NCBI GenBank assembly: GCA_016861265.1
Contig: BOLA01000001.1
Span: 523,569 to 587,568 of the forward strand
Origin: Patescibacteria group bacterium
GTDB taxonomy: Bacteria > Patescibacteriota > Dojkabacteria > J137
Length of the DNA stretch: 64,000 nucleotides
Reading direction: 5' to 3'
A model generated the notes under the pieces. The model did not search any database. It was given only the letters and a program-made list of their open reading frames with translations, and had not been told where the DNA came from. Positions 30,121 to 60,831 of this stretch are shown here, in pieces. The number at the start of each line of letters is the position of its first letter. The stretch's first letter is position 1. The position numbers were made by a program, and so were the translations under genes.

Positions 30121-30915
30121 ATGAAAGTAATGGATAAAGAAACAAAATTTGCTCATCTAGGAAAACCGGGAAGTGTATTTTCAATGGGTTTTGCAAGAAG
30201 ACTGGATTTAATTGAATCAAGAATTGATTTACATAATAAAGTATTTTTGGATATGGGCTGTGGTGAAGGAGTATGGTTAAGGGAATTTGCAAAGTTAAGT
30301 ACTCCGGGTAACGTTTACGGAAGTGAGTACGATAATGAACAAGTTCTATCAATACACAAAAGACTATCACAGGCATCCGAAGAGGAACGAAAATCAGATA
30401 AATTCTTACAAATTCCCTTAAATAACATTAGAAATTGTCCTGGAGAAAGTCTGGATTTCAAAGATGACTTCTTTGATATAGTTTTTCACAACGAAGTATT
30501 AGAACATGTGCAAGATGATGTAGAAACATTAAGAGAATGTTTTCGTGTATTAGACAAGGATGGTTACATGGTATTTTTTACTCCAAACAGAGGATGGCCC
30601 TTTGAAACACACGGTATGTTTTTAAAAGGGAAGTATTACTGGGGAAATATTCCATTTTTACCATGGATGCCAAATTTCATATACAAAAAATTTGCACCTC
30701 ATGTAAGAAATTATTCGAATGGAGATATTAAGAGATTAATAAAGCAGTCAGGAGGAGAGATTGTTTACCATTCGCATGTGTTTTCCGGATTTGATGGTTT
30801 GGTAAATAGATTTGGTTTCTTTGGAAGACTTGTACAAGGATTTTTTCACGCTATAGAAAAAACTCCTCTAAACTTTTTTGGAATAAGTCACTTTGTAATT
30901 GCTAAAAAAGTTTAA
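30121..30915 (+). CDS. class I SAM-dependent methyltransferase
   Basis: Motif I LDMGCGEG and a later post-I acidic motif (DIVFHNEVLEH). Confidence 0.7.
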   Translation: MKVMDKETKFAHLGKPGSVFSMGFARRLDLIESRIDLHNKVFLDMGCGEGVWLREFAKLSTPGNVYGSEYDNEQVLSIHKRLSQASEEERKSDKFLQIPLNNIRNCPGESLDFKDDFFDIVFHNEVLEHVQDDVETLRECFRVLDKDGYMVFFTPNRGWPFETHGMFLKGKYYWGNIPFLPWMPNFIYKKFAPHVRNYSNGDIKRLIKQSGGEIVYHSHVFSGFDGLVNRFGFFGRLVQGFFHAIEKTPLNFFGISHFVIAKKV

Positions 30916-31643
30916 TTGTCCTTTTTCCAATTACCCCATTCCCCGTAATATTTCTGTGCATGTTTTTCAAGGTGTTTTTTAAATATGACACCTGCGCTGC
31001 CAAGAACCATCATTCCTAAAAACCCTCCAATTAGCATTTTTACAATTCCGTTGTTCAGATATCGGCGCTCAGAATGACTAAACGTAGTCTTCAATACTCC
31101 AAATTTCAGTTTCAATTTTTTTGCCTTACGAATAATTTCTTGATCTTCGGTAATTCTCATTTGTTCGTTGAATCCTCCTATTTTTATAAATGCTTCTCGT
31201 GTAAAAAATAATGTTGCACCAGTAGCCATCGCAATTGGAGTTTTTTCTCTAATCTTAAAGGAGGTATTGGTAGCAATATTATGTACATTCTGCGAAACCA
31301 GTTTTGAATCAATTGCAAACATCGAACATGCTAGATCTAATTTTCTTTTATTAAATTCCTTTAGTGATTTTTCTAAAAATTCAGAATTAAAGGTGATGTC
31401 CGCATCTAGAAAAAGTAAGTAATCTCCTTTGGATTCCTTAAAGCCATTATTTCTTCCCACACTCTGAATCCCACCTCTTACTACTCTTGCTCCCCATAGT
31501 CTGGCAAGTTCTGCAGTGCTATCTGTAGAATTCGCATCGGCAACAATTACTTCAAAATCTTTATATGTCTGAATTCTCAACGCATCTAACAGTTGAGGAA
31601 GAAAAGCTTCCTCGTTTAGAGCAGGGATTATTATTGAAATCAT
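30912..31643 (-). CDS. glycosyltransferase family 2
   Basis: MISIIIPALNEE...FLDAD (DxD) in the GT-A fold. Confidence 0.75.
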   Translation of the reverse strand: MISIIIPALNEEAFLPQLLDALRIQTYKDFEVIVADANSTDSTAELARLWGARVVRGGIQSVGRNNGFKESKGDYLLFLDADITFNSEFLEKSLKEFNKRKLDLACSMFAIDSKLVSQNVHNIATNTSFKIREKTPIAMATGATLFFTREAFIKIGGFNEQMRITEDQEIIRKAKKLKLKFGVLKTTFSHSERRYLNNGIVKMLIGGFLGMMVLGSAGVIFKKHLEKHAQKYYGEWGNWKKDN

Positions 31644-31754
31644 TTTCTATAGTTTACTTTTATGGATAATATCACATTCAACTTTTTATTTTCCCTTTTT
31701 AAATTAATTTAATAAAGACCAAAAATGTTAAGATTTTAGGATTAGAAATTTTAT

Positions 31755-32864
31755 ATGAAAAAGAAAAAAATATTAATTGTGCTTGCTGATGTTGGCAATG
31801 GTCATAGATCCGCAGCAAACGCACTAACTAAGGCTTTTGAAAAGATTGACCACCAGGAATATGAGTTAAAGACTATAGATTTATTTGCCCTAGCAGATGT
31901 TCAACCCTTTAATTCATCTGATGATACATATTCCCTTGTGTCCAAGAACCAGGTATTTGAGGAAGTAAATAATTTCTTTTTTAGATTTTTTAATACTCAT
32001 TTCGGATTTTCCTTGTTTACATCTTATACATTAAGCTTTATGCAGAAGGAGTGTACTAAGATTATAGAAGAAGAAGATCCTGATATAGTTGTTTCGGTAC
32101 ATCCTATTGTAAGTATAATTATTTCCTCTATACATAGAATTGACGAAAGTAAATTTAAATACATTAATGTGATTACAGATTTGGTAACTTTATTTAAAGG
32201 TTGGGCAGATAAATATGCTGACTTAACATTCTCACCTACAGAGGAAGCCTACAACCTTTTGTTAGAATTAGGACTAGATAAGAAAAAGATAATAAGTCCT
32301 TTGTTCCCTATTAACCCTGATATGGAACGAGTACGACAAGAAGATATAATTTTAAAAGAGTTAAATTTTGAAACTTCCAACCCCATAATAACCCTTACAG
32401 GTGGGGGAGTAGGTACTGAGTCTTTAAGAAAAGCAATTAGTAAGATTGTAGATAGAAAGGACTTTAACTTAATTGTGATTTGTGGAAAATCAGAATCATT
32501 AAAAGAGGAACTCACCCAAAGATACATACATAATAAAAGCGTTAAAGTACTTGGCTATGTTAACAATATACAAGACTATTTTTCAGTATCTGACATAATA
32601 ATAACTAAGCCGGGTCCTGCCACAATACTCGAAATTCAGCTCTTCAAGAAAAAGGCAATCCTTACAAAGCCAATTGGAGAACAGGAAAAAGGTAATATAG
32701 GTTTCGCGTTGCAAGATCCAAATTTTAAGTATATTGGTAAAAATTGGGATTTATTAAACGAAAGTATTGATCATTTAAAAGAAATTCATATTACTTCGGG
32801 TAATACGAGTAGAAGCTTTAACGAGGCAGAGACAATAATGAAGAAAATCTTAGGTTTGGATTAA
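31755..32864 (+). CDS. MGDG-synthase-like glycosyltransferase (GT28/UgtP-like)
   Basis: N-terminal ILIVLADVGNGHRSAANAL motif of MGDG_synth / processive diacylglycerol glycosyltransferases. Confidence 0.6.
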   Translation: MKKKKILIVLADVGNGHRSAANALTKAFEKIDHQEYELKTIDLFALADVQPFNSSDDTYSLVSKNQVFEEVNNFFFRFFNTHFGFSLFTSYTLSFMQKECTKIIEEEDPDIVVSVHPIVSIIISSIHRIDESKFKYINVITDLVTLFKGWADKYADLTFSPTEEAYNLLLELGLDKKKIISPLFPINPDMERVRQEDIILKELNFETSNPIITLTGGGVGTESLRKAISKIVDRKDFNLIVICGKSESLKEELTQRYIHNKSVKVLGYVNNIQDYFSVSDIIITKPGPATILEIQLFKKKAILTKPIGEQEKGNIGFALQDPNFKYIGKNWDLLNESIDHLKEIHITSGNTSRSFNEAETIMKKILGLD

Positions 32865-32922
32865 GAAATTTATAGGTATAGGCTATAATTATATACCGTA
32901 AAGTAAATGGAGGGTTGCGAAA

Positions 32923-33273
32923 ATGGTTCCCGTGCTGGTAGTCGGTATGCCGAACGAATGGAGAACTAAGCCAGATAGGAGACGTTCACCTGGTTTCTTG
33001 CTTGAAAGAGCCGGAGGAACTTATCTTGGTAGTGTTACCTGCGGGGATGAGAAATCCCAAGTAGAGTACACAATGCTAATTTCTCCTCAATCAGATATAC
33101 TGCTGTTCGCCTCGAATATCGACAACGGTGGAGGATTTGCCAACGAAGAAGATATATGTAGGCATTACAAAACAGCAAAGCAAGTTTGGGATAACGCATG
33201 TAATACAATCCCCATGCCACCTATCGACGATTGTCGATATCACTGGCAGGGCTGGGTTACCAATAATCTGTAG
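32923..33273 (+). CDS. compositionally atypical (GC-rich) 116-aa ORF that may instead be a structured ncRNA
   Basis: Promoter-like TATAAT at 32884-32889, Shine-Dalgarno GGAGG 9 nt before the ATG, terminator hairpin at 33286-33308. GC is far above the flanking sequence and codon usage is unlike neighbouring genes. Confidence 0.3.
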   Translation: MVPVLVVGMPNEWRTKPDRRRSPGFLLERAGGTYLGSVTCGDEKSQVEYTMLISPQSDILLFASNIDNGGGFANEEDICRHYKTAKQVWDNACNTIPMPPIDDCRYHWQGWVTNNL

Positions 33274-33285
33274 ACTCAGTCGAAA

Positions 33286-33308
33286 GGAGCAGTAAAGCTG
33301 CTCCTTTT
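33286..33308 (+). terminator. rho-independent terminator (ggagcag taaa gctgctcc TTTT)
   Basis: 7-8 bp GC-rich stem followed by a T-run. Confidence 0.6.
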
Positions 33309-33367
33309 GATTAACTTTTTACTTTATCACTTCACTAACTAGACTGCTAGCTGATATAATTTTAACT

Positions 33368-34462
33368 ATGTCAAAAAGAGATTATTACGAAGTACTTGGG
33401 GTATCAAAAAGTGCATCCAAGGAAGAATTAAAAAAAACATATAGAGCCTTGGTAAAAAAGTATCATCCTGATAGGAATAAAGAGGCAGATGCTGAAGCAA
33501 AATTCAAGGAAGTTCAGGAAGCCTACGAAATTCTTAGTGACGACCAAAAAAGAAAAGCATACGATCAATATGGTTTTGCAGGTACACAGGCTTTTGGAGG
33601 AACTCAAGGTGGTTTTGGTAATTTCCAGGGATTCGAAGGCTTTCAAGGCGGTCTAGGGGGTGGCTTTGAGGATCTATTAGGCAGCTTTTTTGGATCATCT
33701 TTTGGAGGTTTTGGTGGTAATGGCCAAAATGAGCAACGTGATAATCGAGGTGCTGATCTGGAATTCACAGTCCAAGTTGAATTCAGTGAAGCTATTTTTG
33801 GAACAAATAAATCTGTAAATTATCAACGAAATGTTAGGTGTGAAGTTTGTAAAGGAAGTGGTGCTAAAAATGGAAAAAAGAAGAAATGTACAACGTGTGA
33901 AGGAAAAGGAAAAGTTGTACAGGTTCAAAATACTTTATTGGGGCGAATGCAGATTGTAAATACATGTCCAACCTGTCACGGAAGCGGTGAAATGATTGAA
34001 GAAAAATGTCCTAATTGTAAAGGTGATGGGTTAATTAATAAAAAGGAAGAATTTAGTCTGAAGATTCCTGCTGGAATTCCGGATGGAGTAACCCTAAGAT
34101 TTACTGGACAGGGAAACTATGGAAAGAATGGAGGAGAACCAGGTGATCTATTTGTTACAGTCGAAGTAAAATCACATAAAGTCCTAGAAAGACGAGGAGA
34201 TGATATTTACATGGATAAAGAAATAGATGTTGTTACTGCAGTACTTGGGGGAGAGGTGGAGGTCCCAACCGTCCATGGCGATGTTTTTGTTAGTGTACCC
34301 GCAGGAACGCAAAGTGAACAAGTTCTTAGACTAAAGTCAAAAGGTGGCCCAAAGTTCAGAGGAAGTGGCAATGGTGACCAATTTGTTAAGATAATTGTCA
34401 AAGTTCCACAGAAGTTAAGCTCTAAACAGAAAAAAATCTGGGAAGAACTTAAGAATAGTTGA
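33368..34462 (+). CDS. dnaJ: chaperone DnaJ
   Basis: J domain (HPD in YHPDRNK), G/F-rich linker, four CxxCxGxG zinc-finger repeats and a C-terminal substrate-binding domain. Confidence 0.92.
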
Positions 34463-34591
34463 GTTTTGTGAACACCCATACAGTATGGCGTTTCACGATT
34501 CGTTTGACAAAAAAGAATTTAGCTAAATATAATGGATTTATCACAAATTTTTAGAGATTAAAAATTTTCAATAGCCATTAAGTAGTTAAAT

Positions 34592-46710: not shown

Positions 46711-48336
46711 TTATATCAACATCTCAACTCCATCATTATCAACAAACTTCCACTTCTTATTACTACTTGAAGTCTTTTCATGCTTCTTAAAGAATTTTTT
46801 ATTATCCTCAGCCATGTAAACCGTAAAGTAAGTTTTACCATTCGAATCTTTTAATTCTCGCCCAATTAATTCACCATTTCGGTTCATTTTACTAACTGTA
46901 GCAGAATGTAATCCAAATTCACTTTTAAATTGCCAACTCGCAATCCATAGATCATGATTCTTAATAATCTCAGCTGGTACTATCCCTTCTTTTACATTTC
47001 TTCTACAATCAGCACATTGAATACCATCTAGATTCCACCAAGACTCACTACCTTTAAGACCTCTAGAACAAAGATTACATGAATAACCAGATTCTCGGTC
47101 CTCTAAGAAGAAACCTTCGGGTTCTTTTTCCAATCTTTTCTTTCTTAGTCTCTCTGTTATTTCCATCTCTGCTAGTAGTCTTGCTATTTCTGCTGAGTTT
47201 GAATACTTTAAAAGTTTCTCGGGATCTATTTCTGTTTTAGGTTCTTCTTTCTTTTTACCAAACAATTCATGTAAATCTTCATCACGTTCATATCCTTTTA
47301 ATTGTCCCGAAATATACCCTAATCTATAGGAAGTACCATCTGGTGTAAGTCTCCAGTTTGTTATCTCTAAAGCTTCTTTAATTATTTTTTCTAATTCTTT
47401 AGTACTATCTTTACTGCTTCTATTTGTATCATTATCTTGAACTGAGAATGGAACTATAACAAATCGAGTAATTTCAGGTTTATCAAAGGCTAAATTTTTA
47501 AACTTATATTTAACTAGCTTTTTATTAAGTACCTTTTCAAGTTCAACGATGGTTAATCTTTTTATATTAAAGGTTCTTTCATAAACAGGATCTTGATATT
47601 TTTGAAGCTCATATTCGTATATTTCATTCATAAACTTTAGCTGTTCAAATCCATCTAGTAACTCATCGCCTTTTTCTTTTGACAAACAAAATTCTGATCT
47701 GTATTTTTCTAATAATGATTTCTCCTTTTGTTCTTTCTGTAATCTTTCCTCATCATTCTTTTTATAATCATCAATTTCAATATTCTTATAATCACATGAA
47801 GTACATTTTGTGGTAGTAGTAACTATGTCATCTTTTCGTTTAAACTTATATTTAACCTCTGATTTACATTTTGGGCAAAGATCTGGTTCATGGATCCATT
47901 CCTTTCCATCTTCCCAAACATGTTTACGCTTCTTACATGAGGGGCATTCGAAGAAAAATAACATTTTCTGTGGTTTAGCATCATGCCAATCAAGTGATTT
48001 CATTGTTACATCCATTAACTTATTGCAAGTTGAACACTTAATTGCTGGAGCTGGAGTATTATCATATTTATATTGCTTGAGTTCATCTTCTTCTATCCAT
48101 TCTTTAATTTCAGTTTCTCGATTCTTATATCTGTATAATTTGGTATTTAGAAGCTGTTCATGAAGAACTTGGTTCCAGCCATTATTGATTTCTTCTATTG
48201 GAGTATTTTGGATGTCATGAGATTTGAGTGAATCTTTAGCAACTTTGCTTATAAATTCAATTTTATCAAGACATAGTTCAATAGTTAGTAAATCATACCG
48301 ATCTTCATAGTATTGTTGATCTTGAAGATATTGCAT
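46711..48336 (-). CDS. hypothetical protein with multiple CxxC zinc-ribbon pairs
   Basis: CSTCNK, CPSCKK, CPKCKS, CTSCDY, CNLCSR and CADCRR pairs. 541 aa. 7 nt upstream of the PD-(D/E)xK gene. Confidence 0.5.
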   Translation of the reverse strand: MQYLQDQQYYEDRYDLLTIELCLDKIEFISKVAKDSLKSHDIQNTPIEEINNGWNQVLHEQLLNTKLYRYKNRETEIKEWIEEDELKQYKYDNTPAPAIKCSTCNKLMDVTMKSLDWHDAKPQKMLFFFECPSCKKRKHVWEDGKEWIHEPDLCPKCKSEVKYKFKRKDDIVTTTTKCTSCDYKNIEIDDYKKNDEERLQKEQKEKSLLEKYRSEFCLSKEKGDELLDGFEQLKFMNEIYEYELQKYQDPVYERTFNIKRLTIVELEKVLNKKLVKYKFKNLAFDKPEITRFVIVPFSVQDNDTNRSSKDSTKELEKIIKEALEITNWRLTPDGTSYRLGYISGQLKGYERDEDLHELFGKKKEEPKTEIDPEKLLKYSNSAEIARLLAEMEITERLRKKRLEKEPEGFFLEDRESGYSCNLCSRGLKGSESWWNLDGIQCADCRRNVKEGIVPAEIIKNHDLWIASWQFKSEFGLHSATVSKMNRNGELIGRELKDSNGKTYFTVYMAEDNKKFFKKHEKTSSSNKKWKFVDNDGVEMLI

Positions 48337-48383
48337 AAATAATTATATATTTTTTTGCTTTAAAGTTATAATTTCTGCATATT

Positions 48384-49835
48384 TTGATTGTTAATAATAT
48401 GCTCACAAAGTCTGATTTCCTAATTTATCTTGATGCCCCAAGGCATTTGTGGGCAGTTAAGCACGGCAAGGTTGTAGAAAATGAACTAAATGCGTATGTT
48501 AAACATTTATTTGAGCAAGGATATGAAGTAGAAAAATTAGCAGAGGAATACATTCAAGAATGTTTAATTCCCCAATATAAGGCTCATCAATCTGATGTAT
48601 TAATCCAACCTACATATATTGACGGTGATTTCGAAGCTAGAACTGATGTACTTATAAAAAATCCTTTCACAGAAAAATGGGATATGTTCGAAATCAAAAG
48701 TTCTACGAGTGTAAAGAAAACTCATCAATATGATGCTACATTTCAGGCTCTTATATTTCAGAAAAAGTACGACTTGGGACAAATACACATACTCCATTTA
48801 AATGGAAAATATATACGAGAAGGCGAAATAAACTTATCTAATTTATTTGTTGAAACTAATATTACTGAAAAGGTTGGATCACTTAAAGATGAGGTTAACC
48901 TATTACGTTGTAAAGCACTTGAAGATATAAAGGAAGATAGCTGTACTCATGTACTTGGATGTATCAAACCAAAAGAATGTATATGTTCAGATATATGCCA
49001 TCTAAATCTTCCTGAATATTCAATTTATGATATTAATTATTTAACAGGGAATGAAAAGAAAATAAGGGAGCTAGAAGAAAGAAGTATTATTAATATATTT
49101 GATATCCCTGAGGATTTTAAACTTTCAGAGAAACAACGATTTCAAGTCTCTGTTGCACAAAGTAAACAAGTGGTTATAGATATTGATTCAATTAAATTAG
49201 ACCTTAAAGGAATAGAATATCCACTTCACTTTATAGATTATGAATCTTTTAATCCAGCAGTACCTATATACAATGGATATAAACCATATGACCAAATGTC
49301 TTTTCAGTGGTCTCTACATGTTCAAAAAGAACCTAATGGTGATTTAGAGCATTATGAATTTATCGAACTAGAGAAATGTGATCCAATTCAAAATTTCCTT
49401 TCTGAGTTATCTAAAAAAATTAATCGAAGTGGTTCAATTATTGTTTGGAATAAAACATTTGAAGGTACGCAAAATAAACGTATGGGACAGATCCATCCAG
49501 AATTTGCCTCTTTTTGTGAAGACATGAATACCAGAATGTATGATCTAATGGATATCTTTAAGAATCAATGGTATGCAGATCCTAAATTCAAAGGAAGTTT
49601 TTCTATTAAAAAAGTACTTCCAGTGCTAGTACCAGAGTTAAGTTATGAGGGAATGAGTATCGCAGAGGGGGCTACAGCCATGGCAAGTTGGAATGAAATA
49701 ATATATGGAGAAAGTATTGAAGATGATAAAAAATTAGATACTAAAAACAATTTGCTTAAGTACTGTGAACTTGATACTTTGGCAATGATAAAGATATTCG
49801 CAGTCATTCAGAAAGTTCTAAATTATAACTATTAA
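48384..49835 (+). CDS. DUF2779-like protein with an N-terminal Cas4/RecB-like PD-(D/E)xK nuclease motif
   Basis: N-terminal LTKSDFLIYLDAPRHLW then D-VLIKNP...FEIKSS (D...ExK). The C-terminal half carries the HFIDYESF segment. Confidence 0.45.
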   Translation: MIVNNMLTKSDFLIYLDAPRHLWAVKHGKVVENELNAYVKHLFEQGYEVEKLAEEYIQECLIPQYKAHQSDVLIQPTYIDGDFEARTDVLIKNPFTEKWDMFEIKSSTSVKKTHQYDATFQALIFQKKYDLGQIHILHLNGKYIREGEINLSNLFVETNITEKVGSLKDEVNLLRCKALEDIKEDSCTHVLGCIKPKECICSDICHLNLPEYSIYDINYLTGNEKKIRELEERSIINIFDIPEDFKLSEKQRFQVSVAQSKQVVIDIDSIKLDLKGIEYPLHFIDYESFNPAVPIYNGYKPYDQMSFQWSLHVQKEPNGDLEHYEFIELEKCDPIQNFLSELSKKINRSGSIIVWNKTFEGTQNKRMGQIHPEFASFCEDMNTRMYDLMDIFKNQWYADPKFKGSFSIKKVLPVLVPELSYEGMSIAEGATAMASWNEIIYGESIEDDKKLDTKNNLLKYCELDTLAMIKIFAVIQKVLNYNY

Positions 49836-52800
49836 TCAATCTTCTATCCACTCAGAAGAAGTTCGTTTACCTGAGGAGATGTGTCCAACTACCCTACCAT
49901 TACTTAGTTGAAATATAAGTCCTACCTGTCGAACTCTTAACCCAAGAAGTGATCTAACCTCAAGACATATAGCAAGCTTCTGATCATCTGGAGATAGGAT
50001 AGAACTTTCAATTTTAGAATTTCGATTACTATATTCTTTGGGTAATTGATTCAGTATCGTAGACCATTGTTCAGATTTATCCGTACTACGATTAATTCCG
50101 TCAAGAAGCTGGGTAAGTGGTTCAAGAAAGATTTGCTCTCCAGATGTAAGATATTCAAAATAAATTTGTAAACCTGTTAACTCACAAATTTTCAAATCTT
50201 CAGGATGGCATTTTCTCCCACTCCATGCACATGGTTTAGCTTCAAGAGGTGAACAATAATTCCCTGTTACAGACTTTATAGCTTCTTTCTCCATTAACCT
50301 TGCTCCAGAAAGGCTGCTTGAGACAAAGAATTTCTTAAGGGCCTTTTCCCCTGAAAATACAGATTTCTCAAGTTCATCAGTCAATACTTTTTTGCCAGTA
50401 ATAGAACATTGTTCTAAAATCCCAGGTAGAACTATTTTATTAGTAATTTCACATTTTTCTCCTTCAGAAGGTAGTAATGGTTGTTTTGTTACTGCACAAA
50501 AAATGAATTCGTCTTTATGCCCAGTTTTTCCAGAGAAAATAGAACGTAATTGTTGATCTTTCCTATAAGTTTTTTTTGAAACTTCACTAATAGCCAACTC
50601 GTCTTTTAGAACTTCATCTCCCGTAAATTCACATTTACCAAAAAAACTTTGTTCGGCTTTCTTTCCACTTAATTGAGAAACTTTTAGCAGTGATCTCATA
50701 ACAGGTTTACCTGTAATTTGAGAATAATCAATTTCATCTATTAAGACACGTTTACCAGTAAGTGAACATATTATAGTATTATCAATTGTGGCTTTTCTGG
50801 AACTTATTTCTGATTGAATTAAAAGGTTACGCAATACTTTATTTCCAGTTATTGCATCTGACTCGAGGCAGTCTACAGGTACCTCTTTATTGGTTTTGGT
50901 ACATTTTTCTATTACTGGAACATTTAGAAATTTATTCTGAGATGGAGATAGAGTTATTTCACTAGTATAATTTTCACCACCATCAATATGGTAGTTTACA
51001 AGTATTTTTAATTCTCTGTGAACTGTCCCCTCAACACCTACCATATTGACATTAAGTCTAGGTGTAAAGTCATCATTTAGTCTCTTTCTTTTAATAAGAT
51101 CATCACCTGCACTTTGAATTTCTATTGATTTTCGTTCATTGTAAAATCTACAAAATTCAGATATCCCTTCATCGGCATTTATATTATTAATAATCTTATC
51201 TATTATAATTCCAATCGAACTAGGATCTTCTATAGTATTTGGTATTTTATCTAAGCCGTTTTTAATTTTATTATTATGTTCTATAGAAGAACAATCACTT
51301 TCGATAAGTCGCTCATAGCTATCGCAAGCTACTGTTGAGCGAACCCTAATGAGTGTTTTTCCATCAAAACATCTATATACATCTTTGATATTATAATTTT
51401 TAAAATCACCATTAAAACTATTGACCCATTTTCTTGATATCTCGTCAATCTTTTGTAATATACCATCATCTACATCTGAAACGTTGTGTAATGGGCTACT
51501 AGTTATCTTACCTACAAGACTCTCAAATGAACTTGTTCCTGGAGCATACAAATCACTGTCGGGAGATTTCAAATCTTCATTAAATTGTATTATTTTTATA
51601 TCGCCATCAAGATTACAGCTATATGAATCTATATCAATTTGTGAGATTTTACCCCCCAAGGATTCTAGTCCTAGTAGAGAAACCTCTTTCGCACTCAAAG
51701 ACTTAATTTGTTTAGGTAAATTAGGACATAATGGTCCCATATCTGAACTATCCATTGCACCGAGAAGTGTATTAATAACTTTTTGTTGAGCTTCTAATTC
51801 AACTTTTGCATTAGATATACTTTCCTCGGTCATTCGAGTTGCTTCTTCTATATCTTTTCCTGCTAGCGATGCGATAACAAGTTTACGGATCTGTTCTTCA
51901 AATCCATCTGAGACTTCGTCTTCATTTTCACTTAAACCAGAACCTTCTAATAACGATTCGATATCTCCAATGGCGTGAGCAGCCATCTGTAATTTTTCCA
52001 TTAATCGACCTACAATTTTTTCTTCAAAGGTATCTTTCAAGACTATATTAAAAATGCTTACATTCTTGTGCTCAGAGGCTAATCTTTGAATACGACCTAT
52101 TCGTTGCTCAACAATCATAGGATTCCACGGCAGATCATAATTAATTAGTACATTTGCCGATTGTAAATTTACCCCTTCTGAACCTGCTTCTGTAGATATA
52201 ATCACGTTAATTTCTGGATTGGACTTCTTAAATCTGGCTATCGTATCTTGGTTTCTTTGTCCTGAATCGCCGTTTATGAGTCCACATTTTATACCTAGTT
52301 TTTCTAGAAAGATTTGAATTGAGGTCTGTGTTTCTCTACGTCCTGTAAATATGACCAATCTCCATGCATCAGGTTTCTCGGAACGCAATCTCTCTACCAA
52401 GATATTTAACCCATTTAACTTTGCCGTCACCCCAACCCGTTTAACTACTTCTTGAACATCTATGGCTAGTGATTCAGGAATTGTCTGCCTTCTTGCCATG
52501 TTATTAAGTTGTGCAGATAATGCTTCGGGGCTACTTATAAGAGCTTGGAGAATAGATATTTGAGCTAATGGGTTGAGTTTTTGAATTGGTTCTGCAATTG
52601 TATTAATTAATTCTAGCTCCTCTTTAGATGGAATAACTCGATGGAGTTGCACTATCCTTTCTGGAAAATCAAGTTTTGCATCGATTCTCCTTACACGAGA
52701 CATATACCCATAAACAATTGAACGAAATTCCTCAGCTTTTTCTGGTTTTAAGTGACGAGCATCTGAACGATTATCAGCAATAAAATTTCTTGCGAATAAT

Positions 52801-53528
52801 CCTTCACTTCCAAGAGGATTTTCATGACCTCTAGCCACTGTTAACAAGTCAATGAGTGAGTATAAATCCCAAAGTCTATTGTGAATTGGAGTTGCGGTAA
52901 GCATCAATACATATTTAAATACTCTGTCCGATAAGGCTTGATGAAAACGTTTGGCAACTTGAGGGGTTTTCTCTACACCATATAGATTACGCAATTTGTG
53001 AGCTTCATCTAAAATCAACATTTCAAAACCTAATGTTGATAAGATGTCGAAATATATACGTGCGGATTGATATGTTGTAATTACTGCAACGGAAGAGTCA
53101 TCTGGAAAATTTAATTCTGTTAATTTCTTACCAATTGCTTCAATAGCTGTTATCTTAAATTTTAAATCTAGTTCTTCACGCCACTGAGGCATTAATATTT
53201 TGGGACAAACAATCAGTATCTTTGACACCCGATTACGGGATATAAGTTCGCTTATTATTAATCCGGCACTTATAGTTTTTCCTAACCCAACGTCATCAGC
53301 TAACAATGTAACAGGTAATCTCCTACAAAATGTGATTAAATTGGATACTTGATGTTGATATGGTTCAACATGATCTTTCCATTTATATTCTGACTTTATA
53401 TCACTTCTATCTTTTATTATAATTGGATCAATTAAATCCCATTCGAGTGCAGATTTATACAGATCATATTCTTCTTTATCTTTGGATTTTGAAAGTGCTT
53501 TAGTTTGAATGATAGAAGATGTATCCAT
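49836..53528 (-). CDS. SNF2-family (SWI2/SNF2) helicase/translocase with a roughly 650-aa C-terminal extension carrying tandem C-x2-TG-x2-VL repeats
   Basis: SNF2_N LADDVGLGKTISAG, DEAH box LILDEAHKLRN, helicase-C motifs (ISTEAGSEGVNLQ, QRIGRIQR). C-terminal repeats such as CSLTGKRVLIDEI, CEFTGDEVLKDEL, CEITNKIVLPGIL, CSITGKKVLTDEL. 1230 aa. Confidence 0.85.
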   Translation of the reverse strand: MDTSSIIQTKALSKSKDKEEYDLYKSALEWDLIDPIIIKDRSDIKSEYKWKDHVEPYQHQVSNLITFCRRLPVTLLADDVGLGKTISAGLIISELISRNRVSKILIVCPKILMPQWREELDLKFKITAIEAIGKKLTELNFPDDSSVAVITTYQSARIYFDILSTLGFEMLILDEAHKLRNLYGVEKTPQVAKRFHQALSDRVFKYVLMLTATPIHNRLWDLYSLIDLLTVARGHENPLGSEGLFARNFIADNRSDARHLKPEKAEEFRSIVYGYMSRVRRIDAKLDFPERIVQLHRVIPSKEELELINTIAEPIQKLNPLAQISILQALISSPEALSAQLNNMARRQTIPESLAIDVQEVVKRVGVTAKLNGLNILVERLRSEKPDAWRLVIFTGRRETQTSIQIFLEKLGIKCGLINGDSGQRNQDTIARFKKSNPEINVIISTEAGSEGVNLQSANVLINYDLPWNPMIVEQRIGRIQRLASEHKNVSIFNIVLKDTFEEKIVGRLMEKLQMAAHAIGDIESLLEGSGLSENEDEVSDGFEEQIRKLVIASLAGKDIEEATRMTEESISNAKVELEAQQKVINTLLGAMDSSDMGPLCPNLPKQIKSLSAKEVSLLGLESLGGKISQIDIDSYSCNLDGDIKIIQFNEDLKSPDSDLYAPGTSSFESLVGKITSSPLHNVSDVDDGILQKIDEISRKWVNSFNGDFKNYNIKDVYRCFDGKTLIRVRSTVACDSYERLIESDCSSIEHNNKIKNGLDKIPNTIEDPSSIGIIIDKIINNINADEGISEFCRFYNERKSIEIQSAGDDLIKRKRLNDDFTPRLNVNMVGVEGTVHRELKILVNYHIDGGENYTSEITLSPSQNKFLNVPVIEKCTKTNKEVPVDCLESDAITGNKVLRNLLIQSEISSRKATIDNTIICSLTGKRVLIDEIDYSQITGKPVMRSLLKVSQLSGKKAEQSFFGKCEFTGDEVLKDELAISEVSKKTYRKDQQLRSIFSGKTGHKDEFIFCAVTKQPLLPSEGEKCEITNKIVLPGILEQCSITGKKVLTDELEKSVFSGEKALKKFFVSSSLSGARLMEKEAIKSVTGNYCSPLEAKPCAWSGRKCHPEDLKICELTGLQIYFEYLTSGEQIFLEPLTQLLDGINRSTDKSEQWSTILNQLPKEYSNRNSKIESSILSPDDQKLAICLEVRSLLGLRVRQVGLIFQLSNGRVVGHISSGKRTSSEWIED

Positions 53529-53566: not shown

Positions 53567-54559
53567 TTAATGTGTACGCTGCATAATTAATTCTTCTTTC
53601 ACTTTTTGATGAGCTGTTGTTAGCATTTCTTTGACACCATTTTTAAACTTCGTATTTTCAAGTATCTGAGGTACCTTTACATTTCTTACAGTATCAGGAA
53701 GAGACAAATTTGCAAAGGCATTGGTTGGTCTATACTTGAAGTCTTTAAGATTAAAAACAGTCATTATCTTTCCATATTGAGCCTCAAAATCATTTATTAA
53801 TTCTTGAAGTTTTGATCTGAATAAATCTGGATGTAATTTTATGTATCTTTTATTTGTAAATCCAACCACTGAAGCTATATTAATCATATCATCCGCGGAT
53901 AATGTCGTGCCTTCTAGGATTCTTAGAGCTAATGCTTCGTCAATCTCCTCTTCTAATATAAATGGAGCTCTTTTTATTATATCGACTCTTTTTCTAGCAA
54001 TACTTGCGATAATTAAGGACCTTATTGCATATGAACGAAAAGATGCTTTTGAATGGTATTGTAGAAGTCGAATAATTTCATCCACAGCTTTATCATAATC
54101 TCCAACAAGTAAGTGTCTTTCTAATCCATAAAAATATAAAAATACATAGCTTAAATTAGTTTCTTGAGTGACATCTCTCAACCAGTTTAGATATTGATAG
54201 CGAGTCTCAGGATAAAATTTACTATAAGAAGGGTAATACATAGGATCTTTATATAAATCATTATTTGGTTTGATTGGAAGCTTTGTCCAAATCAAACTTG
54301 GTTCAGCGTAAAATCCATTTTCATTTTCCTTAAGTTCGGGACCGTTCTCAGTAAGAGTTATCGTTATGCTCATAGAGCCAGCAATTTCTATCTTAGATGT
54401 ATCTTCATCAGTTATCCATAATAAAGAAAGGGTGGGTTCAGGTATTCTTAATGAATCTCTAATATTATTATTTGTAGATCTACTGACACTAATAATCTTA
54501 TTATCAATATTTGGATTATTATTAGTTTTCTTAAATAGAGATCCAAGTAAATTGAACAT
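53567..54559 (-). CDS. hypothetical protein co-transcribed with the SNF2 helicase (possibly TerB-N-like, unverified)
   Basis: 330-aa ORF ending 38 nt upstream of the SNF2 start. Contains a conserved-looking YQYLNWLRDV...YFYGLERHLL segment. Confidence 0.45.
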   Translation of the reverse strand: MFNLLGSLFKKTNNNPNIDNKIISVSRSTNNNIRDSLRIPEPTLSLLWITDEDTSKIEIAGSMSITITLTENGPELKENENGFYAEPSLIWTKLPIKPNNDLYKDPMYYPSYSKFYPETRYQYLNWLRDVTQETNLSYVFLYFYGLERHLLVGDYDKAVDEIIRLLQYHSKASFRSYAIRSLIIASIARKRVDIIKRAPFILEEEIDEALALRILEGTTLSADDMINIASVVGFTNKRYIKLHPDLFRSKLQELINDFEAQYGKIMTVFNLKDFKYRPTNAFANLSLPDTVRNVKVPQILENTKFKNGVKEMLTTAHQKVKEELIMQRTH

Positions 54560-54677: not shown

Positions 54678-54848
54678 ATAAGAGACCTAACCTCATATGG
54701 ATTTTTCTATGTGAGCATGGTTTCTAAACAAAATCGTACGACACGTAAAAACGGCTTCTCAGCCGGTATCGTGTCGTACGTCTACAAGGGGGAACTCTTG
54801 TAGGGCAGCCCGAAAGGGTGTAGCCACTGGTCTGAGAAGTCGTTTTTT
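54678..54848 (+). ncRNA. candidate structured RNA or regulatory element (GC-rich, nested hairpins, pseudoknot-capable)
   Basis: -10 TATAAT at 54666-54671; perfect 11-bp inverted repeat CGTACGACACG (54735-54745) / CGTGTCGTACG (54770-54780) enclosing the hairpin CGGCTTCTCAGCCGG; GNRA-capped hairpin GGCAGCCC-GAAA-GGGUGUAGCC (54804-54825); segment ACTGGTCTGAGAAG (54826-54840) complementary to CTTCTCAGCCGGT; then a T6 run. Confidence 0.35.
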
Positions 54849-56287: not shown

Positions 56288-57616
56288 ATGGAAGAAAAAC
56301 TTCAAACTGTCTATGTAAATATAGACGATCTTACCAAAGCTGACTACAACCCAAGGAAATGGGATGAAAAAGCACTTTCAGATTTAAAAGAAAGCATAAA
56401 GCGATTCGGCATAGTAGATCCAGCTATAGTAAATTCAGCTGAAAGTAGAAAAAACATAGTGATTGGTGGACATATGCGTATTGAAGCAGCTAAAGCTTTA
56501 GGTCTTAAAGAAATGCCGGTAATTTATCTGGATATTTCAGATATCGAAAAAGAAAAAGAGCTTAATTTAAGACTTAATAAAAATCAAGGTGAGTTTGATT
56601 TCACTCTACTTGCAAATTTCGCAGAAGATCTATTACAAGATGTGGGTTTTAACTCTGAAGAATTAGACTCAATCTTTGATTGGGATGATGACAATCCAGA
56701 AGTTTTTGATTTAAAGAAAGAACTTGAAAAATTAAATATTAAAGAGATTGAAATACAAAAAGGCGATGTTTGGCAACTAGGTGAAAGTAAATTAATGTGT
56801 GGTGATTCTACAATCGAAGAAAATGTTTTGAAACTTATGAATGGTGAAAAAGCAGACATGTGTTTTACTGATCCTCCGTATATTCTGGATTATCTTCATG
56901 GTAAAAAGAAAAATGGCAAACCAGTTGAGGGCTTTGGAGCTAAGAGAAATAGAAAGTATTTAGAAACAGATGAACTTCCTGATAACTTTACAGAATTATG
57001 GATGGGGAACGTATCTAAAATTTCAAAAGATAATTTTCACATCATTGTTTATGAAAATTGGAAAAATATACGAACTATTTGGAATGAAATTGAAAAATAT
57101 TGGAAAGTTAAAAACATGTTAGTTTGGCATCTTCCAAATAGAAATCAGGGATTTGCAGCTAAATATAAGTTCTTTTCAAAGCATGACATTGCAATGGTAG
57201 GTTCAACTGAAAGATCGGAAACTTTTAATTTAAATCCTGAAGATGAGCTTTTACAAAATGAATATGAAACTGCACTTTATGCAATAGCTGGCAAACCTCA
57301 TTGGGAAGGTTATGAAAAAGGTAAAAAAATCCAGCCAACAGATTTTATTGAATATAAAGCTTCAGATGAAAAAAGTTCTGGGCAAGGAATTATATTTGGA
57401 ACAAAACCACTAGAGATTTTAATCCCATATATCAAAGTTTTAACAAAGAGAGATGATTTGATAATTGAACCATTTGGAGGAAGTGGTTCAACTCTTATTG
57501 CTTCAACAAAGATGAAAAGACGATGCTACTTAATGGAAAAGTCACCAGTCTATGCAGAAGTTATTAAAAACAGATGGGAAAAGTTAACTGGTGAGAAAGG
57601 AGTAAAAATATCATGA
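56288..57616 (+). CDS. ParB-like nuclease domain fused to a DNA N6-adenine/N4-cytosine methyltransferase (beta-class)
   Basis: ParBc GGHMRIEAAKALG; methyltransferase motif IV CFTDPPY before motif I EPFGGSGST (beta permutation). A phage-typical fusion. Confidence 0.8.
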   Translation: MEEKLQTVYVNIDDLTKADYNPRKWDEKALSDLKESIKRFGIVDPAIVNSAESRKNIVIGGHMRIEAAKALGLKEMPVIYLDISDIEKEKELNLRLNKNQGEFDFTLLANFAEDLLQDVGFNSEELDSIFDWDDDNPEVFDLKKELEKLNIKEIEIQKGDVWQLGESKLMCGDSTIEENVLKLMNGEKADMCFTDPPYILDYLHGKKKNGKPVEGFGAKRNRKYLETDELPDNFTELWMGNVSKISKDNFHIIVYENWKNIRTIWNEIEKYWKVKNMLVWHLPNRNQGFAAKYKFFSKHDIAMVGSTERSETFNLNPEDELLQNEYETALYAIAGKPHWEGYEKGKKIQPTDFIEYKASDEKSSGQGIIFGTKPLEILIPYIKVLTKRDDLIIEPFGGSGSTLIASTKMKRRCYLMEKSPVYAEVIKNRWEKLTGEKGVKIS

Positions 57617-58014
57617 AGAATAAAAAGAAAGAATTAGTTGAACAACTAAGAAAAACTCCTGTTATTGAAGTTGCCTGTAAAAAGATTGGAATTGGTAGAG
57701 CGACATTCTACAGATGGAAGAAACGAGATCAGAAGTTTGCTGAGGAAGCGGAATTTGCCTTGAATGAAGGTTCTCAGTTAGTTAATGATATGGCTGAAAG
57801 CCAATTAATAACTTCAATTAAAAATGGAAATATGACAGGAATTATATTTTGGCTTAAAAATCACCATAAGCAATATTCTCCAAAACTTGAGGTCACGACA
57901 AAAAGTGCTGATCTTCCGCTAACTGAAGAACAAAAAGAAACGATTAGAAGATCGTTGAGCATGGCATTTAATTTAAATATTAATAATGATGAAAATGAAG
58001 AAGCTACAAATTGA
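57613..58014 (+). CDS. putative terminase small subunit (N-terminal helix-turn-helix)
   Basis: HTH IGIGRATFYRWKK. Small basic protein immediately upstream of and overlapping the terminase large subunit. Confidence 0.45.
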   Translation: MKNKKKELVEQLRKTPVIEVACKKIGIGRATFYRWKKRDQKFAEEAEFALNEGSQLVNDMAESQLITSIKNGNMTGIIFWLKNHHKQYSPKLEVTTKSADLPLTEEQKETIRRSLSMAFNLNINNDENEEATN

Positions 58015-59458
58015 TCAAGACTACTCATTGCCCATGGAAGTTATTGATGAAATACTAAATGATAAGCAAGTTCGTAAGGAATTAATAAGAGAAAGTCATT
58101 ATTGGTTCTTTCATTTGTATTTCAGTGAATATGTGAAGTATTCAACGGCAGATTTTCAAAAGGAAATGTTCAAGATTACTGAAGATGATAAAGTCAAAAT
58201 GGCAGTGATTATTGCATTTAGAGGCTCGGCTAAATCAACAATTATGACTATGTCCTATCCTCTTTGGGCGATAATTGGAAAACAAAAAAGGAAGTGTGTA
58301 GTAATAATATCTCAAACTCAACAACAGGTCAGAACTCACTTTGCAAATTTAAAGCGTGAATTAGAAAGCAATGAAATTTTAAGAAACGATTTAGGTGCAT
58401 TAGAAGAAGAATCTGATGAATGGGGATCATATTCATTAGTCTTACCTAAATTTAATGCAAGACTTATTGCAGCATCAAGTGAGCAAAGTATCAGAGGAAT
58501 AAGGCATGGTGCAAATAGACCTGATCTAATAATTTGTGATGATGTTGAAGATATAAGTTCAGTGAAGACAAAAGAGGGTCGAGATAAAGCATATAACTGG
58601 CTATCAGGCGAAGTTATTCCCCTTGGTGATCAAAATACAAAAGTAATAATGATAGGAAATCTTCTACATGAAGACTCTTTGTTAATGAGATTAAAGAAGA
58701 AAATTACTGAAGAAAATATGAATGCAATATTCAAGGAGTATCCTATTGTTGATTCTGAAAATAATATTCTTTGGGAAAGTAAATTTAAGAACCTTGAGGA
58801 CATTGAGAATTTTAAAAAGATTATAGGAGATGATAAGGCTTGGCAAAGAGAATATATGTTAAAGATTATTCCGGAAGACGACCAACTAGTGTATAGAGAA
58901 TGGATTCAATATTATGATGAATTACCACAAAATACCAGTAGTTATAAATACACTATAATTGGTATTGATTTGGCAATTTCAACAAGTACATCTGCAGATT
59001 ACACAGCTATGATAACAGCGCATGTTTTTGGTTATCTAGAAAATCTTAAAGTATATATATTACCAAATATATTTAATAAGAGAATTGAATTCCCTGAAAT
59101 AGTCGATACCGTAAAACAAAAAGGTAGAGAAAAGTACTACAGCAGAAGACCAGAGATTTATATTGAAGATGTTGGATATCAAGCATCTGTAATACAAGCA
59201 CTGAAGAATCAGAGCTTAAATGTTAAAGGATTCAAAGTTCATGGTCAAGATAAACGAGCAAGGTTAAATTCCGTAACTCCATATATAAGATTTGGACAGG
59301 TCCTTTTTCCTAAGCAAGGAGCAGAAGAATTAATTCAACAGCTAGTCTATTTTGGTGTAGAGAAGCATGATGACCTAGTTGATGCATTTTCGATGCTAAT
59401 GATAAGAGTTTCAGAAAAAGATAGACCTGGTGTGCAAATTTTACCCTATTATTTCTAA
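57986..59458 (+). CDS. phage terminase large subunit (ATPase plus RNase-H-like nuclease)
   Basis: Walker A AFRGSAKST, Walker B PDLIICDDVED, C-terminal nuclease acidic residues (GIDLA...D...D). Confidence 0.6.
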   Translation: MMKMKKLQIDQDYSLPMEVIDEILNDKQVRKELIRESHYWFFHLYFSEYVKYSTADFQKEMFKITEDDKVKMAVIIAFRGSAKSTIMTMSYPLWAIIGKQKRKCVVIISQTQQQVRTHFANLKRELESNEILRNDLGALEEESDEWGSYSLVLPKFNARLIAASSEQSIRGIRHGANRPDLIICDDVEDISSVKTKEGRDKAYNWLSGEVIPLGDQNTKVIMIGNLLHEDSLLMRLKKKITEENMNAIFKEYPIVDSENNILWESKFKNLEDIENFKKIIGDDKAWQREYMLKIIPEDDQLVYREWIQYYDELPQNTSSYKYTIIGIDLAISTSTSADYTAMITAHVFGYLENLKVYILPNIFNKRIEFPEIVDTVKQKGREKYYSRRPEIYIEDVGYQASVIQALKNQSLNVKGFKVHGQDKRARLNSVTPYIRFGQVLFPKQGAEELIQQLVYFGVEKHDDLVDAFSMLMIRVSEKDRPGVQILPYYF

Positions 59459-59502
59459 TAAATAGCTGGACTTCATTTGATTGTAGCGGTACTGTCCTTG
59501 GT

Positions 59503-60831
59503 ATGAAAACAATTAACCAAGAACAAATCCGCTACTGCTTATATGCAAGAAAATCATCAGAATCAGATGAGAAACAAGCAATGAGTATTGATGGGCAACT
59601 TATGGAGATGAAGGCTCTAGCAAAACGAGAAAAGATTGAGATTATTGAAGTTATAACAGAAAGCCATTCAGCAAAAGAAACTGGTCAAAGACCTCAATTT
59701 AATTACTTGTTAGAGAATATTCAAAAGGGAAAATATAACGCCATAATTACTTGGGCACCAGATAGAATTTCTAGAAATGCAGGTGATCTTGGTCGAGTTG
59801 TTGATCTAATGGATCAAGGAAAGCTTCTATTTATCAAAACTCATTCTCAAACTTTCAGCAATAATCCAAATGAAAAGTTCTTATTGATGATTCTATGCTC
59901 TCAGGCAAAACTAGAGAATGATAATCGAGGTATTAATGTCAAAAGAGGTCTAAGGAATAAATGTAGCGTAGGAATTAGACCAGGTATGGCTCCGATTGGA
60001 TACTTGAATACAATGAAAGGAAATAGAATTGCATCTGTAGACTTAGACCCAGAACGAGCACCTATAATTAAAGAGATGTTTTATAAAGTTGCTAATCAAG
60101 GATATTCCGGTAGGATGGTTAAAAAATGGTTAGACAAACAAAACTTTCAAACAAAAAAAGGTTATAAATTAAGCTTAGGAAGAATTTATGTTGCTCTCAG
60201 TAATCCTTTTTATTATGGAGAATTTCAATATGGTAAGAAATGGTATAAGGGAATACATGAGCCTTTAATCTCCAAATATATTTTTGATAAAGTTCAAATT
60301 CAGCTGGAAGTTGTTCCAAGACAATGGAATAAGCAAGTCTTTCCATTTAAAAAGATTTGTAAGTGCGGTGGCTGTGGTGGAAGTGTTACAGCAGAAGTTA
60401 AATACAGAAGAACAAAGAAAGGAGTTATTAATACTCATATCTATTATCACTGCAATAGAGTTAGAGATTATGACTGTGACGAGCCATACATCACTGAGGA
60501 AGAGTTAATAAAACAACTAGTTACTTATTTACCGGAAATAAATTTAGACTCTAACTATTTATGGAGTGAATTAAATGATGAAATTAGAAGGTTAGATAAT
60601 TTAAAAGAAATTATTATAAAAAATAATGAAGCTCCTATTCAGTTAACTCTACCTAGAACTAAAGGAGAGATATTAATTTGTGAACAAAAATCAAATGAAT
60701 ATATACTACAAGAATATTTAGTTCACATACTTCAGTTTGGTACACCAGATGAAAGAATTAAAATCTTAAATGGAATAAAATCCCAGTTTAAATTAACAGA
60801 AAGAAAGCTAATTGTTAATAACAACATCTGA
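59503..60831 (+). CDS. large serine recombinase (resolvase/invertase N-terminal domain, recombinase domain, zinc ribbon)
   Basis: Catalytic-Ser motif YARKSSESDEKQ, DRISRN and a CKCGGCGG...YYHCNR zinc ribbon. Confidence 0.8.
   Translation: MKTINQEQIRYCLYARKSSESDEKQAMSIDGQLMEMKALAKREKIEIIEVITESHSAKETGQRPQFNYLLENIQKGKYNAIITWAPDRISRNAGDLGRVVDLMDQGKLLFIKTHSQTFSNNPNEKFLLMILCSQAKLENDNRGINVKRGLRNKCSVGIRPGMAPIGYLNTMKGNRIASVDLDPERAPIIKEMFYKVANQGYSGRMVKKWLDKQNFQTKKGYKLSLGRIYVALSNPFYYGEFQYGKKWYKGIHEPLISKYIFDKVQIQLEVVPRQWNKQVFPFKKICKCGGCGGSVTAEVKYRRTKKGVINTHIYYHCNRVRDYDCDEPYITEEELIKQLVTYLPEINLDSNYLWSELNDEIRRLDNLKEIIIKNNEAPIQLTLPRTKGEILICEQKSNEYILQEYLVHILQFGTPDERIKILNGIKSQFKLTERKLIVNNNI

Follow-up and report, generated by a model that had tools for sequence, protein, structure and literature searches.

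A probable accessory small-protein gene of a very rare family upstream of dnaJ in a Patescibacteria genome

Does the guanine-plus-cytosine (GC)-rich unit that lies directly upstream of dnaJ in a low-GC Patescibacteria group bacterium code for a protein, act as a structured RNA or regulate dnaJ? We examined it in a stretch of 64,000 nucleotides (nt) from contig BOLA01000001.1 (assembly GCA_016861265.1, positions 523,569 to 587,568 of the forward strand). This whole stretch is referred to as the window, and coordinates are window positions unless a compared locus (L001 to L017) is named; compared proteins carry P-numbers. A preliminary description of the sequence had offered either an open reading frame (ORF) or a structured RNA and had proposed a cis-regulatory role toward dnaJ. 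We conclude that the unit is very probably an independent accessory gene coding for a protein rather than a structured RNA or a regulatory element of dnaJ. The gene is considered protein-coding because the substitutions in it are mostly synonymous, its reading frame is kept in homologues and its product has a confident predicted fold.

Coding capacity of the unit

By its sequence the unit would form a single-gene expression cassette with a promoter, a Shine-Dalgarno sequence, an ORF and an intrinsic terminator. A putative sigma-70-type promoter is found at 32861-32889 (+) with a -35 element TTAAGA, a spacer of 17 nt and the -10 element TATAAT at 32884-32889. It matches the consensus at 10 of 12 positions in a promoter consensus scan, and the upstream regions of all homologues carry a TATAAT-type -10 at an equivalent distance. 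From the position of the -10, a short 5' untranslated region is predicted at 32896-32922 (+), which holds the Shine-Dalgarno sequence GGAGGG (32909-32914) spaced 9 nt from the ATG at 32923. GGAG, AGGAGG or AGGAG occupies the same position in all ORF homologues. The ORF extends from 32923 to 33273 (+), 116 codons without interruption, with its TAG at 33271-33273. Downstream, an intrinsic terminator is predicted at 33283-33308 (+), a hairpin AAAGGAGCAG-TAAAG-CTGCTCCTTT followed by a T tract; read at 33286-33308 it is GGAGCAG-TAAAG-CTGCTCC with TTTT after it. It is the only terminator-like site that the terminator scan returned in 32700-33500, where shuffled sequences yield 0.3. Its stem is nearly invariant across L003, L011, L001 and L006, and different hairpins are found at its place in L007-L010. 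The TATAAT, the GGAGG site 9 nt before the ATG, the 116-codon frame and a terminator at 33286-33308 had all been located correctly in the preliminary description.

The substitution pattern is that of a gene coding for a protein. Compared with the near-identical copies in L003, L004 and L005 (96% amino-acid identity), the window ORF has 19 nucleotide differences, 14 synonymous and five non-synonymous; 13 of the synonymous changes are at third positions and the other is CTG to TTG. Against the 56%-identical homologue in L001, differences at the three codon positions number 34, 34 and 71, the non-synonymous divergence (dN) is 0.36 and the synonymous divergence (dS) is saturated. The frame is uninterrupted, at 116-127 amino acids (aa), in seven protein clusters down to 23% amino-acid identity. 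A conserved protein with synonymous variation had been named beforehand as the sign of a horizontally acquired small protein gene, and this is the pattern found.

A non-coding structured RNA with a fortuitous ORF, for instance a divergent RNase P RNA, transfer-messenger RNA (tmRNA) or 6S RNA or a new large RNA, would also account for a GC-rich unit within an AT-rich genome, as is seen for many structured RNAs. The full unit indeed folds more stably than dinucleotide shuffles (z = -4.6). Part of that value comes from the terminator, however, and the coding sequence (CDS) alone gives z = -2.3. A cmscan of 32000-34500 against Rfam 15 at E≤10 returned terminator look-alikes only, scoring 22-23 bits against gathering scores of 48-56. 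At the gathering scores nothing matched anywhere in 32000-34500 (RNase P RNA, tmRNA, 6S, riboswitches, small RNAs), and ARAGORN found no tmRNA. With RNAalifold, no consensus structure was detected in the codon alignment of eight sequences (structure conservation index 0.009; z = -0.4 against column shuffles), and consensus-structure energies compared with independently synonymous-shuffled codon alignments gave z-scores of -1.3, -0.85, -0.14 and +0.43. Together with the three-base periodicity of the mostly synonymous changes, a frame and length preserved to 23% identity and the confident protein fold, these results leave the structured-RNA reading effectively refuted and, in our judgement, highly improbable. 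Of the two identities first proposed for the unit, the ORF is thus borne out by its homologues, its synonymous excess and its fold, and the RNA finds neither an Rfam or ARAGORN match nor a conserved structure.

The small hairpins GGGAT-GAGAA-ATCCC (33044-33058) and ATCGAC-GATT-GTCGAT (33224-33239), noticed at the outset, are both present, but their stems of 5-6 base pairs are at about chance level in 400 nt and are not kept in homologues. A conserved RNA was also considered from the four closest transcripts (alignment A3), for which RNAalifold paired 92% of cells with 16 double-sided changes; the signal vanishes against synonymous shuffles. The A3 covariation was rejected as evidence because the structure had been fitted to the same four sequences.

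The ORF codes for a soluble product of 116 aa (13.1 kDa, pI 5.2). Its homologues are P0001-P0005, P0007 and P0008, of which P0001 is 96% identical and P0002 is 56% identical over 99% of the query. An exhaustive HMMER search of 1.84 billion representatives retrieved five genuine relatives of 117-127 aa (P0003-P0005, P0007 and P0008) together with three repeat proteins that are spurious matches, and in a profile search of 5.8 billion clusters the family amounted to seven clusters. A genome scan for family members returned one metagenome-assembled genome (MAG; L011), two metagenome scans returned none, and no paralogue of the ORF was found within the window. No family member matched Pfam, NCBIfam, PHROGs or PADLOC, and sequence-profile searches of the PDB gave no match to the family.

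AlphaFold2 run on an alignment of eight sequences (A2) predicted the structure with a predicted local distance difference test score (pLDDT) of 91.1 and a predicted template-modelling score of 0.85, all five models reaching at least 88; with three sequences only, the pLDDT was 55. The predicted elements are, in order, a strand (residues 4-7), two helices (11-14 and 23-29), three strands (33-41, 46-53 and 59-65) and two helices (75-92 and 108-115). Foldseek returned nothing significant from the PDB (best E 0.29, TM-scores ≤0.33) or from BFVD (best E 0.055). The α-β-β-β-α order of residues 23-92 had suggested a double-stranded RNA-binding domain (dsRBD). This was rejected: hhalign gave a probability of 0.1% for A2 against two dsRBD sequences, no dsRBD was among the Foldseek matches and Pfam dsrm was not matched.

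Members of the family are soluble and mostly mildly acidic, with pI values of 4.6-6.3 and one of 8.4. They have from zero to four cysteines, none of them invariant, so the cysteine content singled out in the preliminary description is not a feature of the family. Ten residues are invariant (L27, G31, L35, V47, L61, F62, A63, A85, W89 and P99). As these are hydrophobic, glycine or proline residues and no polar residue is invariant, we infer that the protein is a binding scaffold rather than an enzyme, and it may act by binding a partner and not by catalysis. On the predicted model, the family appears to comprise very rare, uncharacterised alpha/beta proteins that are small, soluble and mildly acidic.

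The dnaJ control region and the history of the gene

The type I dnaJ at 33368-34462 (+) belongs to a predicted separate transcription unit and codes for a J domain, a G/F region, a CXXCXGXG zinc finger and a C-terminal domain; its Pfam domains were read from the 99%-identical L003 and L004 copies and the identical protein P0011. As first reported, dnaJ stands alone, without an adjacent hrcA, grpE or dnaK. Its putative control region (33324-33367, +) adjoins the unit but lies outside it and combines an extended -10 with an imperfect inverted repeat resembling CIRCE (controlling inverted repeat of chaperone expression). The repeat, TTATCACTT-N9-GACTGCTAG at 33324-33350, overlaps the -35 element TTCACT and matches the canonical TTAGCACTC-N9-GAGTGCTAA at 14 of 18 positions. 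The earlier statement that no CIRCE is present holds for the canonical element, which is absent at ≤3 mismatches, but not for this conserved CIRCE-like repeat. The degenerate pattern, which was designed after the fact, occurs nowhere else in the window, where 0.01 occurrences would be expected. The extended -10 (TG-TATAAT), TGATATAAT, ends at 33360, and the dnaJ ATG at 33368 follows 7 nt after it without a Shine-Dalgarno sequence, suggesting that the dnaJ mRNA in the window is probably leaderless.

A near-invariant block, TTATCACTT-N9-(G/A)(A/C)CTGCTA(A/G)-CTGATATAAT, lies past the terminator of the unit. It is kept in both ORF-bearing and ORF-less loci (L012, L013 and L015), including one whose DnaJ is only 74% identical, and it is conserved though the dS of dnaJ is about 1.7. 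In L010, dnaJ begins 215 nt past the ORF, and a long leader comes after the CIRCE-like/-10 block. The promoter of the unit has no CIRCE-like element. A cis-regulatory role of the unit is unlikely, since a conserved promoter and putative operator belonging to dnaJ itself lie past the terminator of the unit. We rejected it given that the terminator is conserved and relatives have the same dnaJ promoter without any ORF.

To follow the history of the gene, we compared its occurrence with that of dnaJ. The ORF is present in the window and in L003-L005, L011, L001/L002, L006, L007 with L010, and L008. At every locus of the low-GC clade with downstream sequence available it is directly upstream of dnaJ, and a diverging FMN-reductase gene is often found upstream of it. 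The slot is empty in L012 (DnaJ 87% identical), L013/L014 (83%) and L015-L017 (74%; 24 contigs read), where dnaJ lies 69-84 nt from the upstream gene. The gene order of these three outgroup lineages, otherwise the same as at the ORF-bearing loci, is methyltransferase, GT2, MGDG synthase, an optional FMN_red, dnaJ, GPI, rhomboid and Mur ligase. DnaJ identity is at least 90% among the ORF-bearing loci with a full-length or nearly full-length dnaJ (window, L003, L011 and L010) and 82-89% for the ORF-less ones. The cassette is an accessory gene with presence/absence polymorphism in a syntenic site, and a single gain in the ORF-bearing sub-clade is the simplest history. Loss of the ORF in the ORF-less lineages is the alternative, not favoured as the simplest. 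The most distant member, P0007, is encoded on a 45%-GC contig of the candidate phyla radiation (CPR), where dnaJ is not adjacent and genes for DUF5667 and NrdR follow. Direct repeats are absent at both occupied and empty junctions, and the only inverted repeats are those of the terminator. A phage or plasmid origin was rejected, as neither collection contained relatives.

The nearest genome record with the ORF, L011, is a MAG that bears the label uncultured Candidatus Saccharibacteria. This disagrees with the nearest named DnaJ homologues, which share 55-64% identity and carry the label Candidatus Dojkabacteria.

The gene evolves quickly. Between the window and L011 amino-acid identity is 55% for the ORF, 91.5% for DnaJ and 90% for GPI, and the dN of the ORF (0.36, against 0.056 for dnaJ) makes it about six times faster at non-synonymous sites. 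In one genome (L007 895-1563; L010 33-410) the gene is duplicated in tandem. P0004 comes first, then P0008, which shares 37% identity with it, and dnaJ is next in line. Conservation also steps sharply at the ORF. When the window is compared with L011, the downstream genes dnaJ, GPI and rhomboid have 80-92% identity, and the upstream glycosyltransferases (GT2 and MGDG-synthase-like; window 30912-32864, L011 241-3399) only 44-46%. The FMN-reductase gene is found in L011, L012 and L013 and is absent from the window. A variable envelope-biosynthesis region abuts a conserved housekeeping block at the ORF. The JGI contig L001 (1104-2722) codes for an ORF one residue off that of L011 (3992-5535), yet its dnaJ differs (389 aa, 41% identical, GC 0.43). 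L001 is likely a chimeric assembly joined at the conserved start of the J domain; real recombination is the alternative.

In several of these traits the gene resembles the lineage-restricted orphan ORFs of CPR/Patescibacteria. Like them it is a short gene standing on its own, belongs to no Pfam or NCBIfam family, has a narrow taxonomic range, varies in presence among close relatives and evolves quickly. It differs from them in the unusual rarity of its family (seven clusters in 5.8 billion) combined with a confident AlphaFold model, in being the compositional extreme of its own genome and in an mRNA that folds unusually stably.

Composition and mRNA folding

Why is the gene so rich in GC? Its GC content is 0.459 against 0.326 for the whole window, a level that 0.02% of 351-nt windows attain. 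At third codon positions (GC3) it reaches 0.427, compared with 0.242±0.032 for the 46 ORFs of at least 200 aa in the window, and it ranks first among about 63 window genes, the second being at 0.33. The preliminary description had been right that GC is well above the surroundings and that codon usage is unlike that of the neighbours. GC3 is also raised in each low-GC-clade homologue, where it is 0.36-0.60, the flanking genes being almost all at 0.17-0.28, and synonymous sites in the flanking dnaJ are saturated (dS ~1.7).

Foreign origin, with amelioration still incomplete, is the best reading of the high GC and atypical codon usage. Given the persistence of the excess at a dnaJ dS of about 1.7, plain foreign origin suffices only with a very GC-rich donor. 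By a rough estimate, a donor with a GC3 of about 0.9 could still leave about 0.45 after about 0.85 substitutions per synonymous site per lineage. A further contribution to the high GC may come from selection for a compact, stable mRNA. Two explanations for the GC3 excess stand side by side, incomplete amelioration from a very GC-rich donor and selection for a generically compact, stable mRNA, and the nine loci did not separate them.

The folding of the mRNAs bears on this choice. Seven independent homologue CDSs are all more stable than their dinucleotide shuffles, with z-scores from -2.2 to -4.7, and the near-identical CDS of L003 gives -1.9; 18 neighbouring gene segments average -0.28±0.55 in the same test. 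When synonymous codons are shuffled instead, the homologue CDSs have a mean z of -2.65 (range -1.3 to -4.2), compared with -0.40±0.72 for low-GC controls. Mann-Whitney tests gave p = 8e-5 for the dinucleotide test and p = 2.5e-4 for the synonymous test. The effect is moderate because the z-scores of seven GC-matched control genes spread widely, from -2.3 to +1.3. The intuition that RNA structure matters here is thus partly upheld: mRNAs of the family are individually more structured than expected, but their structures are not conserved. The folding excess favours some contribution of selection for mRNA stability to the high GC3.

A stronger version would hold that the transcript serves two purposes, coding for the protein and being selected as an mRNA for extensive structure, which would explain the persistent GC3 excess. 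Such structure could mean a long half-life, throttled translation or a temperature switch that hides the Shine-Dalgarno sequence. In its favour are the seven independent homologues that, unlike controls, exceed both kinds of shuffle, the raised GC3 of every low-GC-clade homologue despite saturated dS, and the in silico pairing of the Shine-Dalgarno sequence and start codon, which are mostly paired (P = 0.6-0.85) in the transcripts examined. That pairing is hardly above the transcript-wide mean of 0.62-0.66, however, and the pairing partners differ between homologues. The structures also have no positional conservation under a coding-aware null, the A3 covariation derives from a structure fitted to those four sequences, and the wide spread of the GC-matched controls makes the effect moderate. 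We regard an additional selected property of the mRNA as a tentative proposal, one that we rather doubt.

Known dual-function RNAs and RNA thermometers (RNAIII/hld, SgrS/SgrT, ROSE and fourU) are similar in pairing a structured transcript with a small protein, in a heat-shock neighbourhood and in a Shine-Dalgarno sequence predicted to be paired. Here, in contrast, the ORF takes up about 85% of the transcript, there is no conserved structure, motif or Rfam match, and the excess structure is generic.

Origin and possible roles of the gene

As we would reconstruct its origin, the cassette entered the spacer that immediately precedes the dnaJ promoter in a single sub-clade of low-GC CPR/Patescibacteria, would be transcribed and terminated independently of dnaJ without acting on it in cis, and would be of foreign origin with incomplete amelioration. 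As a best guess, the most likely role of the product is that of an orphan immunity or modulator-type protein. Several points weigh against this account. Transcription, translation and termination of the cassette are all predicted, and the AlphaFold alignment is shallow at eight sequences. The sole family member outside the clade is P0007; hallmarks of mobility (direct repeats, an integrase, att-like sites) were not found flanking the cassette, and tblastn searches of phage and plasmid collections gave no relatives. Foreign origin leaves the excess mRNA folding stability wholly unexplained, and the GC3 of homologues stays at 0.36-0.60 despite the dS of about 1.7 in the flanking dnaJ. Near the ORF we see neither a toxin gene nor any other partner gene, and without function-bearing homology or a structural match the functional part is conjecture.

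That the product is a binding or immunity-like protein is a possibility to which we give some weight, well short of an expectation. In the more specific form of this idea, a horizontally acquired orphan immunity- or antitoxin-type binding protein would neutralise an effector of neighbouring cells or of a mobile element. Small acidic size, patchiness, rapid divergence, tandem paralogues and atypical composition are typical hallmarks of immunity-gene cassettes. The product is small, acidic and cytoplasmic without an invariant polar residue, and the gene varies in presence among close relatives, diverges rapidly, has divergent tandem paralogues in one genome and is atypical in composition. The resemblance is circumstantial: no immunity or antitoxin family of PADLOC, Pfam or PHROG was matched, no toxin gene is adjacent and Foldseek gave no match to solved immunity proteins. 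In this specific form the proposal is somewhat doubtful. The orphan immunity genes of polymorphic-toxin systems (SUKH/SMI1-KNR4-type) resemble the ORF in size, acidity, lack of a catalytic motif, the occurrence of divergent paralogues in tandem, patchiness and atypical GC; the ORF differs from them in matching neither their families by hidden Markov model (HMM) nor their solved members by Foldseek and in having no toxin neighbour. A SUKH/immunity lead that came from a motif resemblance was dropped, as HMM and Foldseek searches gave it no support.

The position beside dnaJ raises a further possibility, a lineage-specific accessory factor of the chaperone/heat-shock system. DafA of Thermus thermophilus is an assembly factor for DnaK-DnaJ. 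Lineage-restricted small modulators of the heat-shock system are known, among them HagF of Chlamydia, a lineage-specific small protein that binds HrcA (PMC12154930). The ORF is directly upstream of dnaJ at all low-GC-clade loci with downstream sequence, and dnaJ bears a conserved, putative CIRCE-like operator. This adjacency is confined, however, to a narrow clade whose members share synteny across the entire neighbourhood, and the most distant member, P0007, is not beside dnaJ. Close genomes with DnaJ 82-89% identical lack the ORF, and the ORF forms a separate transcription unit, has no CIRCE-like element at its promoter and evolves about six times faster than DnaJ. We consider a modulator of the chaperone circuit unlikely. 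The comparison with DafA and HagF is by gene adjacency only, a sequence relationship not being expected. All are small lineage-restricted proteins encoded beside a chaperone gene, here with a putative HrcA/CIRCE-type operator nearby, but the ORF is a separate transcription unit, is missing in close relatives and is unlinked to dnaJ in P0007.

An even less probable combination would join these ideas. The family would have a new fold and be GC-rich because its mRNA must be heavily structured, either long-lived or temperature-gated, and the protein would modulate the DnaJ/HrcA circuit. If true, an ultra-small CPR bacterium would control its heat-shock response through an additional, new layer restricted to its lineage, comparable to HagF and DafA.

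Elsewhere in the window, a LOOT RNA (Rfam RF03000) was found at 54684-54825 (+), with 55.3 bits against a gathering score of 46.4. It sits between a gene for a TerB_N-domain protein (53567-54559, -) and an unannotated ORF of 170 aa. Just downstream of it, 56288-60831 (+) resembles a prophage remnant or an integrated mobile element. Its genes, all on the plus strand, code for a ParB_N protein with an N6/N4 DNA methylase (56288-57616), an HTH small-terminase-like protein (57613-58014), a large terminase (Terminase_6C; 57986-59458) and a large serine recombinase (59503-60831). The region 46711-53528 is a possible defence-type cluster. It encodes an unannotated protein of 541 aa (46711-48336, -), a DUF2779 protein (48384-49835, +) and an SNF2/ResIII helicase of 1230 aa (49836-53528, -).

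The feature upstream of dnaJ is then of an ordinary kind: a fast-evolving small-protein gene of a rare family, horizontally patchy and predicted to be expressed independently. A candidate mystery RNA is resolved in this way, and there is no further need to suppose that it controls dnaJ. An extremely rare family that folds confidently and has no Foldseek neighbour in the PDB is a cheap target for structural and functional work on CPR accessory genes. The GC3 and folding excess at saturated synonymous sites offers a small natural test case of amelioration against mRNA-structure selection in an AT-rich reduced genome. For heat-shock control in this lineage, the putative CIRCE-like operator of dnaJ and its probably leaderless start are more informative than the ORF.

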